NCBI RefSeq assembly: GCF_013315695.1 | Contig: NZ_CP054359.1 | DNA from: Escherichia coli | Lineage (GTDB): Bacteria; Pseudomonadota; Gammaproteobacteria; Enterobacterales; Enterobacteriaceae | DNA length: 4,110 nucleotides | Reading direction: 5' to 3' (one strand) | Shown: piece after piece, positions 156-4,026 of the stretch | How positions within the stretch are numbered: position 1 is the first letter of the stretch | How the letters are laid out: the number at the start of each line of letters is the position of its first letter | Made by a program: the position numbers and the translations under genes | The notes under the pieces: model-generated | Database searches by the model: none | What the model was told of the DNA's origin: nothing | Seen by the model: only the letters and a program-made list of their open reading frames with translations

Positions 156-167
156 GTTTTCCACAGG
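156..167 (+). promoter_or_regulatory. DnaA-box-containing 12-bp repeat, copy 2 (GTTTTCCACAGG)
   Basis: Exact direct repeat of 60-71, 96 bp downstream; contains TTTTCCACA at 157-165. Confidence 0.5.
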
Positions 168-267: not shown

Positions 268-350
268 GGTGAACATTTCGGGGGTAAAGGTGAACATTTC
301 GGGGGTGGTTAGGTGAACATTTCGGGGGTAAAGGTGAACATTTCGGGGGT
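268..350 (+). repeat. Iteron array of oriV: four direct repeats of GGTGAACATTTCGGGGGT
   Basis: 18-bp core exactly repeated at 268-285, 289-306, 312-329 and 333-350, with alternating spacers AAA and GGTTA (periodicity 21/23/21 bp, about two helical turns). Sits directly upstream of a Rep_3-type initiator gene. Confidence 0.9.
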
Positions 351-352
351 GG

Positions 353-361
353 TTATCCACA
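353..361 (+). promoter_or_regulatory. Consensus DnaA box TTATCCACA adjacent to the last iteron
   Basis: Exact 9-mer match to the high-affinity DnaA box consensus, 2 bp after iteron 4. Confidence 0.65.
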
Positions 362-447
362 GAAAATGGTGAATTAAAAAAAAATGATTGCACCAATTGA
401 TGGGGTGAACTAGTTTTTTTTTAGTTTACTTTAGGTGAGGGTGCTCA
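362..447 (+). promoter_or_regulatory. rep promoter/operator region with partial iteron motifs and ribosome-binding site
   Basis: Partial iteron half-sites GGTGAA (368-373) and GGTGAAC (404-410), plus an imperfect inverted copy TTGCACC (388-394). Possible -35 TTGCAC (389-394) and -10 TAGTTT (411-416), both weak. Shine-Dalgarno-like GAGG at 437-440, 7 nt before the ATG at 448. Confidence 0.4.
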
Positions 448-1149
448 ATGGTTGATTTGATAGCTTACAAATCCAATGCCTTAGTCGAAGCCAGCTACAA
501 GCTCACGTTACAGGAGCAGCGTTTCCTGTTGCTGTGCATTAGTCGATTACAGTCAGGTGTTGATGCTCCTCCACCTGAATTACAAAAGACCATGACTATT
601 ACGGCTGTGGAGTTTTTTAATTCATTTCCTGACATGGGAAGAAACCATGCCGAAGAAAAGTTACAGGAAGCGATCGATCGTCTGTGGGACAGGTCGATCA
701 TTCTTAAGGATGGTGAAAAACGCGAGGAGTTCCGTTGGATCCAGTATCGGGCGCAGTACCTGAAAGGCGAAGCAAAAGTTCAAATAACTTTCGCAGATGC
801 TGTAATGCCGTACTTAACGCAATTAAAAGGGCAATTCACAAAAGTTGTAATTAAAAACATATCTAATTTATCAAAGAGTTATAGCATCAGAATATACGAA
901 ATCCTCCAACAGTTCCGTAACACAGGGGAGCGGATGATTTCTCTAGATGATTTCCGCAGCATGCTACAACTGGAAGATAAATATAAAGATTTCAAGACGT
1001 TAAATAGAGCCCTCATAAAACCGGCAGTGGCGGAACTGAATCAAAAAAGCGATCTGGCCGTAACGGTTGAGACAATCAAGAAGGGGCGCACTGTCGTAGC
1101 CCTGCATTTTCGCTTCAAGGAAGACAAACAGATCAAGATGACGATCTAA
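448..1149 (+). CDS. repA: Iteron-binding plasmid replication initiator, Rep_3 (RepA/RepE/pi-like) family, 233 aa
   Basis: Complete ORF, ATG to TAA (1147-1149). The translation has the hallmarks I recall for Rep_3 initiators such as pPS10 RepA: an N-terminal ...SNALVEASYKLTLQEQRFLLLC... segment and a C-terminal ...YSIRIYEILQQF...ISLDDFRSMLQLEDKY...ELNQKSDL... segment. Located immediately downstream of the cognate iterons. Lower GC than the mob module. Confidence 0.85.
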   Translation: MVDLIAYKSNALVEASYKLTLQEQRFLLLCISRLQSGVDAPPPELQKTMTITAVEFFNSFPDMGRNHAEEKLQEAIDRLWDRSIILKDGEKREEFRWIQYRAQYLKGEAKVQITFADAVMPYLTQLKGQFTKVVIKNISNLSKSYSIRIYEILQQFRNTGERMISLDDFRSMLQLEDKYKDFKTLNRALIKPAVAELNQKSDLAVTVETIKKGRTVVALHFRFKEDKQIKMTI

Positions 1150-1168: not shown

Positions 1169-1194
1169 AAAACGCGCGCTGACGCGTTTTTTTT
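1169..1194 (+). terminator. Rho-independent terminator for rep
   Basis: Perfect 8-bp stem AAAACGCG (1169-1176) / CGCGTTTT (1183-1190) with a 6-nt loop, followed by a further T-run, 8 T in all across 1187-1194. Begins 20 bp after the rep stop codon. Confidence 0.6.
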
Positions 1195-1256: not shown

Positions 1257-1282
1257 AAAAAAATCCCCCATATGCGGGGGGA
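1257..1282 (-). terminator. Rho-independent terminator for mobA (minus-strand orientation)
   Basis: G/C stem CCCCC (1265-1269) / GGGGG (1276-1280), extendable to 6 bp, with an ATATGC loop. On the minus strand the hairpin is followed by a 7-T run (complement of A 1257-1263). Lies about 117 nt downstream of the mobA stop. Confidence 0.55.
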
Positions 1283-1324
1283 AGAAACTATGCGGAGATT
1301 ATCTAGTTTGTTGTGTGTGCTTAT

Positions 1325-1398: not shown

Positions 1399-3558
1399 TC
1401 ACTGTGACCAACCGCGATCGTGCCTCCTCTCGGTGGCGTGTGTTCGTGCATCTTCCTCGCGCCGCCATTCGTCCCAGGTACGATTAAAACCCAGCGAGCG
1501 GAACAGATGATCCGGCTGTTTTTCTGGTGTATTGACGGCAGCAAAAAGCGGTGCCTCACGGGTTTTCAGATGAAACTCCATAAGTTCCGGTGCAGGTGAT
1601 ATGTGGCTGTCTGCATCGTGATTGACGGCAACACCATACCCTGCATACCGTAACCCCTTGTCCGTCAGCGCACTGATGACCAGATGCCTGTTATCGGCTG
1701 AGGGAACGGCAAACGCGGGATACAGCGTGCCATTAAGCCGGACAACGCCGCCCAGAGAGTCATCCACGCCCATGACCAGCAAAAGCTGAAGCTGGCGGGT
1801 TTCCCGGTCGACAGAACTCATTACCGGCATCAGCGTCGGTGGCAGACGTCCCTGCGTAAAATCCACCTTCCTTGCTGCCAGTGATGGCATGGCTGGCTGG
1901 CGGTCTTCTCCAAGACAGAAAAACTCCGGCCATGTCTTCGGCTGGCGGAGATTGCGGGTATGTTGTGGCCATGTCTGGCAAACCTGCGTCAGCAGTTGCT
2001 CAAAGGTCGCAGAGGAATAAACACGTTGCAGTGGTGGATGTTGACCGATTTCGCTTCGGTCACAGATATAACCACTCCTGTCACGCATTAAATCAACACG
2101 CTCAAAGATTCTGGTGCGGTATTTCTCCAGCTCGTTCCCCCAGAGCGTATATTCTCCGTTCCGGTTGTGAAGCAGAAGGTAACTGGTCATTTCCCCGTTA
2201 CCAGGCATGGGGGCCTCGCCATACCCCGTAACGACTGCTCTCAGTACCCCTGAATCCATAACGGCATTGTCATTTTTCCTGAGCTGCTCCGCTCGTCGCT
2301 CCGCGCGACTACGTTCTGTATCCTCCAGCTCCTTCCGGCGCAATTCCTCTTCACGTTTAAGCAACTGGGCTCTGAGAGCTGCAAGGCCGGATGCCCCCCA
2401 CTGCTGCCACTGTGTTTCAAATTCCGTCTGACTCGCGGGAATGTCCTGTTTCTCCACCTTCCGGTAATGCTGTCGCAATTTTTCCATTTGCTGGCTCAGA
2501 GACTGAATTTTTCCCTGCTCACTACGGTATTCCGGTGCAGCCCATTGCATCAGGGGAATACGGGAAAAACCGGACGAAAACGGCGATGATTTTTTCAGGC
2601 TGGCAGCATGGCTCATCGCTTCCTTTCGTTCGGTGTTCAGCTCTTCCCAGCGTCTGCGCGTCGCCTGCATATCTGTCATCATCGACATGGCATTACTGGT
2701 GAGTTTCCATGCCGCGTTACTGTCCTTCGGCAACGCTTCGATGATGTCACGTAGTGTGTACGAAGTTGCGTTGTCAGGAAGCTCAATATTCAGAAGGTCA
2801 GCCACACGGCGGGCAGGCTCTGTCAGCCCGCTGTTCCTGAGTTCGGTACGGAAAATCTGTATTTCCAGGCTAAGCCTGTTAATCAGACGATTCTGTTCGC
2901 CGCGTTCTGTTTCGATACCGCGTGTTTCCATCGCACAGGCAGACTTTCCGAGGTGAATACCAGGCGTTTTCTCAAGCCCCTGTCGCTCGTATGAACGATG
3001 GTCTATCTCTTCCTGATAACCGGCGTTCGCCAGTGCCCTGTTTGCATGGTCAGCCCATGATGCCCGCCACGTCTCGGCATGTGTCCGGTCGTTCCAGTCC
3101 CTGACCTTTCCACCGAACCCCGCAGGTCCGACAGCCCTCGTGGTCAGCATGATGTGCGCATGGGGATTTGTTTTATCCATGTGATGGAACGCCACATCAG
3201 CAATCATGCCCTGACTGACAAAGTTTTCTCTGACAAAGGCGAGAACGGTTTCCCGTGCGGCATCCTGCGGCAGTTCACGGGGGATGGCGAGTTCAATTTC
3301 CCGCGCAAGTTGTGAGTTCTTCCGACGTTCGGCCTTCTCAACGGCATTCCAGAGTTCGGTACGGTTCGTACACCAGGCAGGGGCGGTGGCGGGGGACAGA
3401 ATCACAGCCTCAGCCACACCGCTTTTGCGGGTGTAGTCGTGAGTCAGTCCGGTACGCTCATCAAGCATTAGTGAACCGGAACGATAGGCAGCAGAAGCAA
3501 CGGCGCTGTAGCCGTTGCTTCTGGAGATGATTTTCATGCTGAGATGATAAATCGCCAT
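1399..3558 (-). CDS. mobA: MOBQ-type mobilization relaxase MobA with C-terminal RepB'-like primase domain (relaxase-primase fusion), 719 aa from the conserved MAIYHL start
   Basis: The N-terminus MAIYHLSMKIISRSNGYSAVASAAY closely matches RSF1010/R1162 MobA (MAIYHLTAKTGSRSGGQSARAKADY), including the catalytic Tyr25 (codon 3484-3486). Histidine-triad metal-binding motif HHMDKTNPHAHIML and conserved WADHANRAL...IDHRS...GLE..PGIHLG are present. A central E/R/Q-rich predicted coiled-coil follows. C-terminal motifs ERVDLMRD, LLLVMGVDDSL and HLFRSLGFNRT resemble RSF1010 RepB' primase segments (ERFDIGVRD, LVLVDDLSEF, HYGRLAGFTNRK) as I recall them. Start chosen at ATG 3558 rather than the ORF-track start at 3663. 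Approximate domains: relaxase 2886..3558, linker 2181..2885, primase-like 1399..2180. Confidence 0.85.
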   Translation of the reverse strand: MAIYHLSMKIISRSNGYSAVASAAYRSGSLMLDERTGLTHDYTRKSGVAEAVILSPATAPAWCTNRTELWNAVEKAERRKNSQLAREIELAIPRELPQDAARETVLAFVRENFVSQGMIADVAFHHMDKTNPHAHIMLTTRAVGPAGFGGKVRDWNDRTHAETWRASWADHANRALANAGYQEEIDHRSYERQGLEKTPGIHLGKSACAMETRGIETERGEQNRLINRLSLEIQIFRTELRNSGLTEPARRVADLLNIELPDNATSYTLRDIIEALPKDSNAAWKLTSNAMSMMTDMQATRRRWEELNTERKEAMSHAASLKKSSPFSSGFSRIPLMQWAAPEYRSEQGKIQSLSQQMEKLRQHYRKVEKQDIPASQTEFETQWQQWGASGLAALRAQLLKREEELRRKELEDTERSRAERRAEQLRKNDNAVMDSGVLRAVVTGYGEAPMPGNGEMTSYLLLHNRNGEYTLWGNELEKYRTRIFERVDLMRDRSGYICDRSEIGQHPPLQRVYSSATFEQLLTQVCQTWPQHTRNLRQPKTWPEFFCLGEDRQPAMPSLAARKVDFTQGRLPPTLMPVMSSVDRETRQLQLLLVMGVDDSLGGVVRLNGTLYPAFAVPSADNRHLVISALTDKGLRYAGYGVAVNHDADSHISPAPELMEFHLKTREAPLFAAVNTPEKQPDHLFRSLGFNRTWDEWRREEDARTHATERRHDRGWSQ

Positions 3559-3602
3559 TTCTGCCGTAATGCCTTTTTGCAGTTTTCTTTCAGCCCCGCA
3601 GG

Positions 3603-3650
3603 GCGCACACAATCGAACCGAAGGTGAGATTGTATAAGTGCGCACTTCGT
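3603..3650 (+). other. Candidate origin of transfer (oriT), IncQ/MOBQ-like: imperfect inverted repeat with GAA loop followed by nic-core TAAGTGCGC
   Basis: Imperfect inverted repeat ACAATC-GA-ACC / GGT-GA-GATTGT (3609-3633) with a central GAA loop, followed 2 nt later by the 12-bp perfect palindrome AAGTGCGCACTT (3636-3647). TAAGTGCGC (3635-3643) matches the RSF1010 nic-region core GTAAGTGCG^CCCT. Sits between divergent mobA and mobC, on the strand antisense to mobA as in RSF1010. Predicted nic after G3642 on the + strand. Confidence 0.6.
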
Positions 3651-3699
3651 GATTTCTGCGCATTATGCCAGCTCAGTTTTTAAACTACCAGTGACGAGC

Positions 3700-3705
3700 T
3701 AAAAT
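3700..3705 (+). promoter_or_regulatory. Candidate -10 element (TAAAAT) of the mobC promoter
   Basis: 5/6 match to TATAAT, 30 bp upstream of the mobC ATG. The upstream -35 is poor (T-rich, around 3677-3682). GGAG Shine-Dalgarno at 3725-3728, 7 nt before the ATG. Confidence 0.3.
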
Positions 3706-3735
3706 GCGATTTTTCACCGCGCACGGAGTTACATC

Positions 3736-4026
3736 ATGAGCAGAACACTCGAACAGAAAATTGCCGAAGCTGAAGCCAGATTGCAGCGTCTGAAGGCAAA
3801 GAGCCGGAGCCTGGACACAGCGCAGAAGGTCGTTGTAGGTGCTGCATTGCTGGCAAAGGTCAGAAAGCCGGAGGAGGTGCAATTGCGCGCCTGGTTACTC
3901 CAGTTCCTGAAGGCAGAGGTGACACGGCAGGCTGATGTGAGCAGGATACAGCCGTTGATTGACGAACTGAACGCGTTGCCAAAACCCGTCCCCAAAGGCG
4001 TGTCAAAAAACGGCCAGCAGGCGTGA
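3736..4026 (+). CDS. mobC: Mobilization accessory protein MobC-like (relaxosome component), 96 aa
   Basis: Complete ORF, ATG to TGA (4024-4026), with a good RBS. Small protein with an N-terminal charged helix (AEAEARLQRLKAKSR) and the motif KVVVGAALLAKV, resembling RSF1010 MobC (about 94 aa, ...RKVLVGAMILAKV...). Divergent from mobA across the oriT, which is the IncQ arrangement. Confidence 0.7.
   Translation: MSRTLEQKIAEAEARLQRLKAKSRSLDTAQKVVVGAALLAKVRKPEEVQLRAWLLQFLKAEVTRQADVSRIQPLIDELNALPKPVPKGVSKNGQQA

Follow-up and report, generated by a model that had tools for sequence, protein, structure and literature searches.

A putative double-palindrome operator for Rep autoregulation between the iterons and rep of a pIGWZ12-type Escherichia coli plasmid

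The 86 bp that separate the replication origin from the initiator gene of a small Escherichia coli plasmid (positions 362-447 of the window, meaning the whole 4110-bp stretch of DNA that was analyzed) probably form the promoter and operator of rep, where dimers of the Rep_3 initiator would bind two palindromes, O1 and O2, and repress transcription of their own gene. We place the probability of this reading at about 0.72. Between the last iteron and the rep start codon lie four copies of the 5' head of the iteron, in the order direct/inverted/direct/inverted, with iteron position 3 at 369(+), 393(-), 405(+) and 429(-), giving a spacing of 24/12/24 bp (Table 1). The same order and the same spacing are found in pSC101, and the half-sites change in step with the iterons and with a short segment of the initiator among related plasmids.

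The window is a complete small plasmid. Across the 1200 bp compared, it matches the 4109-bp E. coli plasmid NZ_CP147570.1 at 100% identity and 4.1-kb plasmids of E. coli and Salmonella at 99.9%; relatives are typed in PLSDB as rep_cluster_1778/MOBQ, and more than 440 PLSDB records match the plasmid family. The plasmid is a member of the pIGWZ12/MOBQ41 family with an iteron-origin Rep_3 replicon. Its prototype in that family, pIGWZ12, is about 4.07 kb long and likewise has a Rep_3 initiator, iterons, an A+T-rich region and a MOBQ4 relaxase, with four DnaA boxes and with iterons that act as incompatibility determinants (PMC6856555). The GGTGAAC head and the class of WH2 helix in the window differ from those of the 4072-bp relatives L004 and L023 (GGTGGAGG). 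The 96-aa open reading frame beyond the relaxase gene had no Pfam match; at its position relatives have an 84-aa protein with the annotation MobC, a relaxase accessory protein, and the counterpart in pEC19-5 is a 96-aa hypothetical protein. An oriT presumably lies in the mobA-mobC intergenic region, at about 3540-3735. The rep and mobA genes converge, and the DNA separating them holds two terminator-like hairpins that face each other and have T-runs, at 1169-1190 (+) and 1264-1283 (-). Beyond the rep terminators, at 1325-1375 and short of the 3' end of mobA, two 9-bp arms, TGACGTTCA / TGAACGTCA, form an inverted repeat without mismatch, and CATGAAC and AACATGATGTT repeats come after it. These GAAC-containing repeats were considered as extra Rep sites and rejected, because their (G/C)A(T/C)GAAC units are unchanged in relatives that have other iteron heads.

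Upstream of rep, the origin has tandem iterons in helical phase (spacing 21/23/21 bp), close to an A+T-rich region and DnaA boxes, as in a Rep_3 iteron replicon. Each iteron consists of the head GGTGAAC and a tail, ATTTCGGGGGT. A perfect DnaA box, which the sequence-only reading did not note, directly adjoins both the last iteron and the first palindrome, and a box at this junction of iterons and palindromes is kept in all relatives (TTATTCACA, TAATCCACA and similar). On the other side of the iterons, three AT-rich repeats of 13/14 bp at 179-223 (GATCTTGTTTTTA twice, then ATACTTGTTTTC) are probably the DNA-unwinding element; two of them contain GATC sites and resemble the oriC 13-mer GATCTnTTnTTTT, and they are almost invariant in relatives whose iterons differ.

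Table 1. Coordinates of the origin, the candidate rep control region and the genes of the 4110-bp window
Feature	Position	Strand	Sequence or remark
DnaA-box-like sequence, two identical copies	60-71, 156-167		GTTTTCCACAGG; on the other side of the AT-rich region
Four iterons, 19 bp each	267-285, 288-306, 311-329, 332-350	+	AGGTGAACATTTCGGGGGT
Perfect DnaA box	353-361	+	TTATCCACA; between last iteron and candidate operator region
O1, convergent palindrome, 27 bp	368-394		D1 + I1; counterpart of pSC101 IR-1
Half-site D1	368-374	+	GGTGAAT; 6/7 against iteron positions 2-8; left arm of O1
A9 tract	376-384	+	O1 spacer; about -47 to -39 of predicted promoter
Half-site I1	388-394	-	TTGCACC (reverse complement GGTGCAA); 5/7; right arm of O1; overlaps -35-like hexamer
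Predicted -35 hexamer, promoter P1	388-393	+	TTGCAC
Alternative promoter P2	397-402 / 420-425		TTGATG / TTTAGT; 9 bp downstream of P1; score tied with P1
O2, convergent palindrome, 27 bp	404-430		D2 + I2; counterpart of pSC101 IR-2 and F repE operator
Half-site D2	404-410	+	GGTGAAC; 7/7; left arm of O2; abuts predicted -10 hexamer
Predicted -10 hexamer, promoter P1	411-416	+	TAGTTT; predicted start near 423
Half-site I2	424-430	-	GTTTACT (reverse complement AGTAAAC); 5/7; right arm of O2
Shine-Dalgarno region	433-443	+	AGGTGAGGGTG; holds fifth head-like direct copy, GGTGAGG, 434-440, 5/7
rep	448-1149	+	233-aa Rep_3 initiator, WH1 + WH2; Pfam Rep3_N + Rep3_C
MobA/MobL relaxase gene	1399-3663	-
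Small open reading frame	3736-4026		96 aa; counterparts in relatives annotated MobC

Exact GGTGAAC occurs five times on the two strands of the 4110-bp window, four times within the iterons and once at D2. Against dinucleotide shuffles of the 86-bp interval 362-447, scored on both strands, matches to GGTGAAC are in excess at every threshold: one 7/7 match where the null mean is 0.012 (P=0.012), two at 6/7 or better where 0.23 are expected (P=0.017), and six at 5/7 or better where 1.9 are expected (P=0.005). Three of the four half-sites are imperfect, and I1 and I2, at 5/7 each, are alone within chance (about two 5/7 matches are expected); what makes I1 significant in this sequence is where it lies and how it compares with the sites of relatives. 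When the pSC101 geometry was fixed in advance and all four sites were scored together, the window reached 23 of 28, a score attained in 0 of 5000 mononucleotide and 0 of 5000 dinucleotide shuffles (null mean 11.2-11.3, maximum 17). The sequence-only reading had placed GGTGAA(C) copies at 368-373 and 404-410, both exact in position (GGTGAAT, 6/7, and the exact GGTGAAC), and an imperfect inverted copy at 388-394, which corresponds to I1. What it read as a single imperfect inverted pair is a set of four half-sites forming two convergent palindromes; I2, the GGTGAGG copy and the 24/12/24 spacing had been missed.

The GGTGAGG copy coincides with the Shine-Dalgarno sequence because the 18 nt before the ribosome-binding site (421-438, TTAGTTTACTTTAGGTGA) resemble the 18 nt before the first iteron (255-272, TTAGATTGCTATAGGTGA), to which they are 83% identical. 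This similarity could be due to chance, to an old duplication or to a further Rep site. At the position of this copy, Y. pestis pCKF has AAGTGAAC.

The rep promoter is predicted to lie within the palindromes. A standard sigma-70 scan of positions 1-1400 returned no promoter, and promoter P1 was called by simple weight-matrix scoring of hexamers in the interval after the DnaA box, combined with positional conservation. Promoter P1 is weak, with 6 of 12 consensus positions in TTGCAC/TAGTTT, and in the window it ties for the top score with P2. All relatives have TTGCNC or TTCCAC at the position of the P1 -35 hexamer, followed by 17 bp and then TAnnnT (TATATT, TATCTT, TACAGT, TAGGTT or TAATTT), and this conserved arrangement is the highest scoring in five of nine relatives (L001, L002, L006, L011 and L014). 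The promoter falls inside O1/O2 in either register. In the P1 register, I1 would overlap the predicted -35 hexamer, as the sequence-only reading had suggested, and the position of this -35-like hexamer is conserved across the family; D2 would abut the -10 hexamer, and O2 would run across that hexamer and the presumed start. The proximal UP element has the consensus AAAAAARNR, which the A9 tract resembles and whose role it may play; its position is A-rich in all relatives. Autoregulation of the P1/Rts1 type, where the promoter hexamers lie inside the iterons, was also considered and rejected: the standard scan, which included the iterons (267-350), found no promoter within 1-1400, and the conserved candidate lies downstream, at 388-416, in the interval after the DnaA box to which the weight-matrix scoring was confined. 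An intrinsic terminator or attenuator hairpin fared no better, since no terminator was called in 362-447 and the only stem before the T-run at 414-422 is 4 bp long (CACC/GGTG).

Origin-rep junctions were compared across 13 relatives from PLSDB and five more. All are colinear, the ATG following the DnaA box at a distance of 84-89 bp, and their iterons differ mainly in the 5' head, the tail (ATTT..RGGT) being more conserved. The window shares its GGTGAAC head with Yersinia pestis pCKF; other relatives have AGG(C/T)AATATGA, (G/T)GTGGAGG or GGTGA(G/T)nn, and a Providencia plasmid has AGGCATAGA. In nine relatives with different iterons, half-sites occur at conserved positions, and the best fit at those positions is to the plasmid's own iteron: own heads match D1, I1, D2 and I2 at a mean of 3.8, 5.3, 5.6 and 5.3 of 7, and heads of other classes at 2.7, 3.7, 3.6 and 3.4. 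When own heads were compared with others' heads by the best four matches per interval, the permutation p was 0.0001 for 7-mers and 0.001-0.004 for other word lengths, to be read against few independent co-variation events, perhaps five or six, because several of the relatives are close kin. The best four-site register is the same in eight of nine representatives of the iteron specificities, and the ninth is 2 bp off. In L001, the site equivalent to I1 repeats 14 nt or more of that plasmid's iteron in inverted orientation and without mismatch. D2/I2 is the better conserved of the two palindromes and forms a perfect inverted repeat in L009 (GGTGGCGT...ACGCCACC) and in L014 (GGGATAGAC...GTCTATCCC), while D1 is the least conserved half-site and co-varies weakly in a fixed register. 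Pairing by eye yielded unusual spans, 20 bp in L006 and 28 bp in L012, but in the fixed-geometry scan both also fit the 24/12/24 register, so that their readings are ambiguous; for L006 the alternative is 20-bp instead of 25-bp palindromes. The Pseudomonas megaplasmid relative L020 has a single palindrome only and is uninformative for the double-operator geometry.

The closest parallel is pSC101, whose control region (NC_002056), like that of F, was taken from PLSDB and read directly. For pSC101, Rep binding and repression are established in the literature of 1985-1995, whereas for the window both are predictions. Like the window, pSC101 has four head half-sites in the order direct/inverted/direct/inverted at 24/12/24 bp, with rep just downstream. 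Its -35 hexamer lies at the right arm of the first palindrome and its -10 hexamer towards the left of the second, and the hexamers predicted for the window are placed likewise. Its half-sites lie at -15/+9/+21/+45 from the -35 hexamer TTGACT, compared with -19/+5/+17/+41 from the predicted TTGCAC of the window, an upstream shift of 4 bp with respect to that hexamer. Iterons in both are built from AGG, a variable head, ATTTAC and GG(T), those of pSC101 (RS1-3) reading AGGTCTAGC(G/A)GAATTTACAGA, and its palindromes are GGACTAG...CTAGCC (IR-1) and GGTATAG...CTAGACC (IR-2). The two plasmids differ in several respects: the arms in pSC101 run into a far longer IR-2 palindrome (CATCTCAATTGGT...ACCAATTGAGATG), unlike those of the window, and the window has four iterons, with a DnaA box between them and the first palindrome, where pSC101 has three. 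Unlike pSC101, the window plasmid is of the high-copy MOBQ4 mobilizable type, the prototype of which is present at about 15 copies (PMC6856555).

Other systems share part of this layout. The repE operator of F, TGTGACAA-N9-TTGTCACA, and O2 of the window, GTGAACTA-N9-TAGTTTAC, are both convergent inverted repeats of the 5' head of the iteron; the F operator in full is AGTGTGACAA-tctaaaaac-TTGTCACACT, with arms that repeat the head of the F iteron, TGTGACAAATTGCCCT. Both heads contain GTGA, and the Rep fold is the same. Measured from one head position to its equivalent in the other arm, the F operator spans 23 bp and that of the window 25 bp. The only palindrome of F lies downstream of its -35 hexamer, and the window has two. 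The pPS10 plasmid of Pseudomonas also has a Rep_3 initiator and four iterons, and there RepA dimers on an inverted-repeat operator repress repA while monomers on the four iterons initiate replication (PMC4857107, PMC2367726); it has a single operator, and the comparison covered its initiator and its published regulation. In a betaproteobacterial host, Neisseria gonorrhoeae plasmid pJD4 (L019), whose Rep is 42% identical to that of the window, has four half-sites with an ACAAC head in the same order and at near-identical spacing (head position 1 at 4, 33, 41 and 69). In the 90 nt upstream of its rep, this beta-lactamase plasmid has in addition, unlike the window, an almost complete inverted iteron (AACAGGAAATTTGTTGTCTT) that overlaps the start codon.

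The encoded Rep is an initiator with two winged-helix domains. Its Pfam domains are Rep3_N (1.8e-37) and Rep3_C (4e-21), and its sequence matches in the PDB are pPS10 RepA, RepE and pi, the best being the pPS10 WH1 domain (1HKQ, E 2e-12). An AlphaFold2 model (pLDDT 81.5) has two winged-helix domains, and Foldseek with this model retrieved RepE54 and pi in complex with iteron DNA as well as the RepE dimer in complex with its operator (2Z9O). Identity to pSC101 RepA is 30% over the full length (aa 1-231, E 2e-32), and to F RepE it is 23%. The Reps of L001, L002, L003 and L006 are 93-96% identical outside aa 168-195 and 46-57% identical inside it, with the exception of L001 and L002, which are 96% identical to each other in this segment. 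In the AlphaFold2 model, the hypervariable residues 174-188 fall at the turn that leads into the WH2 recognition helix (182-200) and in its first half. Three motifs in this segment go with three classes of head: DFK(T/I)LNR with GGTGA(A/K) in the window, L006 and L011; QF(K/R)DLNK with GGTGGAG in L003, L009 and L012; and T(Y/F)KSLNQ with AGG(C/T)A in L001, L002 and L014. The motif classes track the head classes regardless of the iteron tail and of overall Rep relatedness. In F, WH2 of RepE contacts GTG/GtCA of the iteron head and reads the sequence that iteron and operator share (PMC4980987). These comparisons support the view that the half of the iteron repeated in the putative operator, the head, would be the half read by WH2, and aa 168-195 look like a swappable determinant of specificity, that is, of incompatibility.

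Taken together with this fold, the layout suggests the following mechanism. Rep dimers, joined through WH1, would place their two WH2 domains on one half-site each of a palindrome. The right arm of O1 would cover the -35 hexamer, with the upstream A-tract possibly serving as an UP element, and O2 would reach from the spacer end across the -10 hexamer and over the start site (~423). Because the palindromes would cover the promoter elements, occupancy of O1 and O2 would exclude RNA polymerase, and rep transcription would drop as Rep rises. Monomers, in turn, would bind the full iterons, head and tail, and fire the origin. Initiator dimers are known to bind efficiently where half-iterons are arranged as inverted repeats (PMC3401445), and RepE dimers repress repE in F (PMC5785507, PMC13028717); a 2026 study of F makes the case for repression of repE by monomers too, which questions dimers as the sole repressing form, and for a possible part of an operator half-site in the pairing of iterons (PMC13028717). 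The sequence-only reading had proposed an operator for Rep self-repression, and comparative evidence supports it, all the computational tests able to contradict this reading having agreed with it.

The two palindromes need not do the same work. Ohkubo and Yamaguchi (J Bacteriol, 1995) reportedly described IR-1 of pSC101 as a replication enhancer and IR-2 as the strong repressor site. By analogy, O2 (404-430) could be the only autoregulatory operator, and O1 (368-394), beside the DnaA box at 353-361, could be mainly a Rep-binding enhancer of the origin that would aid the loading of Rep and DnaA on the iterons and not repress transcription. We regard this division of labor as a credible alternative, but one well short of an even chance. 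O1 matches IR-1 in position, abuts the perfect DnaA box and contains D1, the least conserved half-site, while D2/I2 is better conserved and in two relatives perfect; two of the three motifs in the sequence-only reading lie in O1. On the other hand, the conserved -35-like hexamer lies partly under the right arm of O1, where binding should also hinder RNA polymerase, and the roles of enhancer and operator are compatible with each other: O1 may act in repression, at the origin, or in both.

Dimers on palindromes are also not the only form in which Rep could act here. D1, D2 and the copy at 434-440 are oriented like the iterons and might be weak extra iterons for Rep monomers, which would titrate the initiator or couple these copies to the iterons of the origin by handcuffing or looping. 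Whatever effect there is on transcription would then be due to bound monomers or to loops, and not to dimers on palindromes. The F study on monomer repression and on pairing by an operator half-site (PMC13028717) fits such a scheme, but these copies are without the iteron tail that WH1 of a monomer would need, and the inverted partners at fixed distances of 24 bp in the window family, pSC101 and pJD4 are the signature of a binder with two-fold symmetry; we consider extra iterons unlikely. Very improbable, in our view, is that the motifs have no function for Rep, being chance matches or decayed remnants of an iteron duplication, with the symmetry of the region (A9/T9 and the arms 369-394/404-429) reflecting DNA bending, an UP element or a cruciform or hairpin. 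The 5/7 matches would permit as much, as would the A9 tract in a position that suits an UP element, and as single-stranded DNA the region folds at -10.6 kcal/mol (z -2.4). That fold is weak and driven by the A/T runs, however, and the region had no Rfam match and no called terminator; no shuffle attained the four-site score, and the sites change with the iterons across specificity classes while keeping their positions.

Autoregulation by Rep at O1 and O2 would be a control of a well-known type, that of pSC101, F and pPS10, and is not a new mechanism; the general picture of iteron-plasmid control is unchanged by it. What it provides is a candidate function for the 86 bp that lie between origin and rep in small mobilizable enterobacterial plasmids of a very common family, and an instance of the pSC101 IR-1/IR-2 layout whose spacing holds to the base pair among plasmids with Reps of only 30-42% identity. 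For vectors of the pIGWZ12 type, it predicts the bases that set the level of rep expression and, through it, copy number. More tentatively, and with odds a little short of even, we propose that iteron heads, operator half-sites and some 5-8 residues at the start of the WH2 helix (aa 174-188) form a three-way co-evolving specificity module. If so, the swap of a short WH2 segment accompanies a change at eight or more DNA sites (four iterons and four half-sites) between Reps that are otherwise 93-96% identical, new types of incompatibility or specificity arise in this way within the MOBQ41 plasmids, and the pairs DFKxLNR-GGTGA(A/K), QF(K/R)DLNK-GGTGGAG and T(Y/F)KSLNQ-AGG(C/T)A are a natural read-out of a WH2-to-DNA code. 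Between plasmids that otherwise hardly differ, recognition helix, iteron head and operator appear to change together as one compact module, and the analysis predicts the Rep residues and the DNA bases that would define the compatibility of co-resident plasmids of this family.
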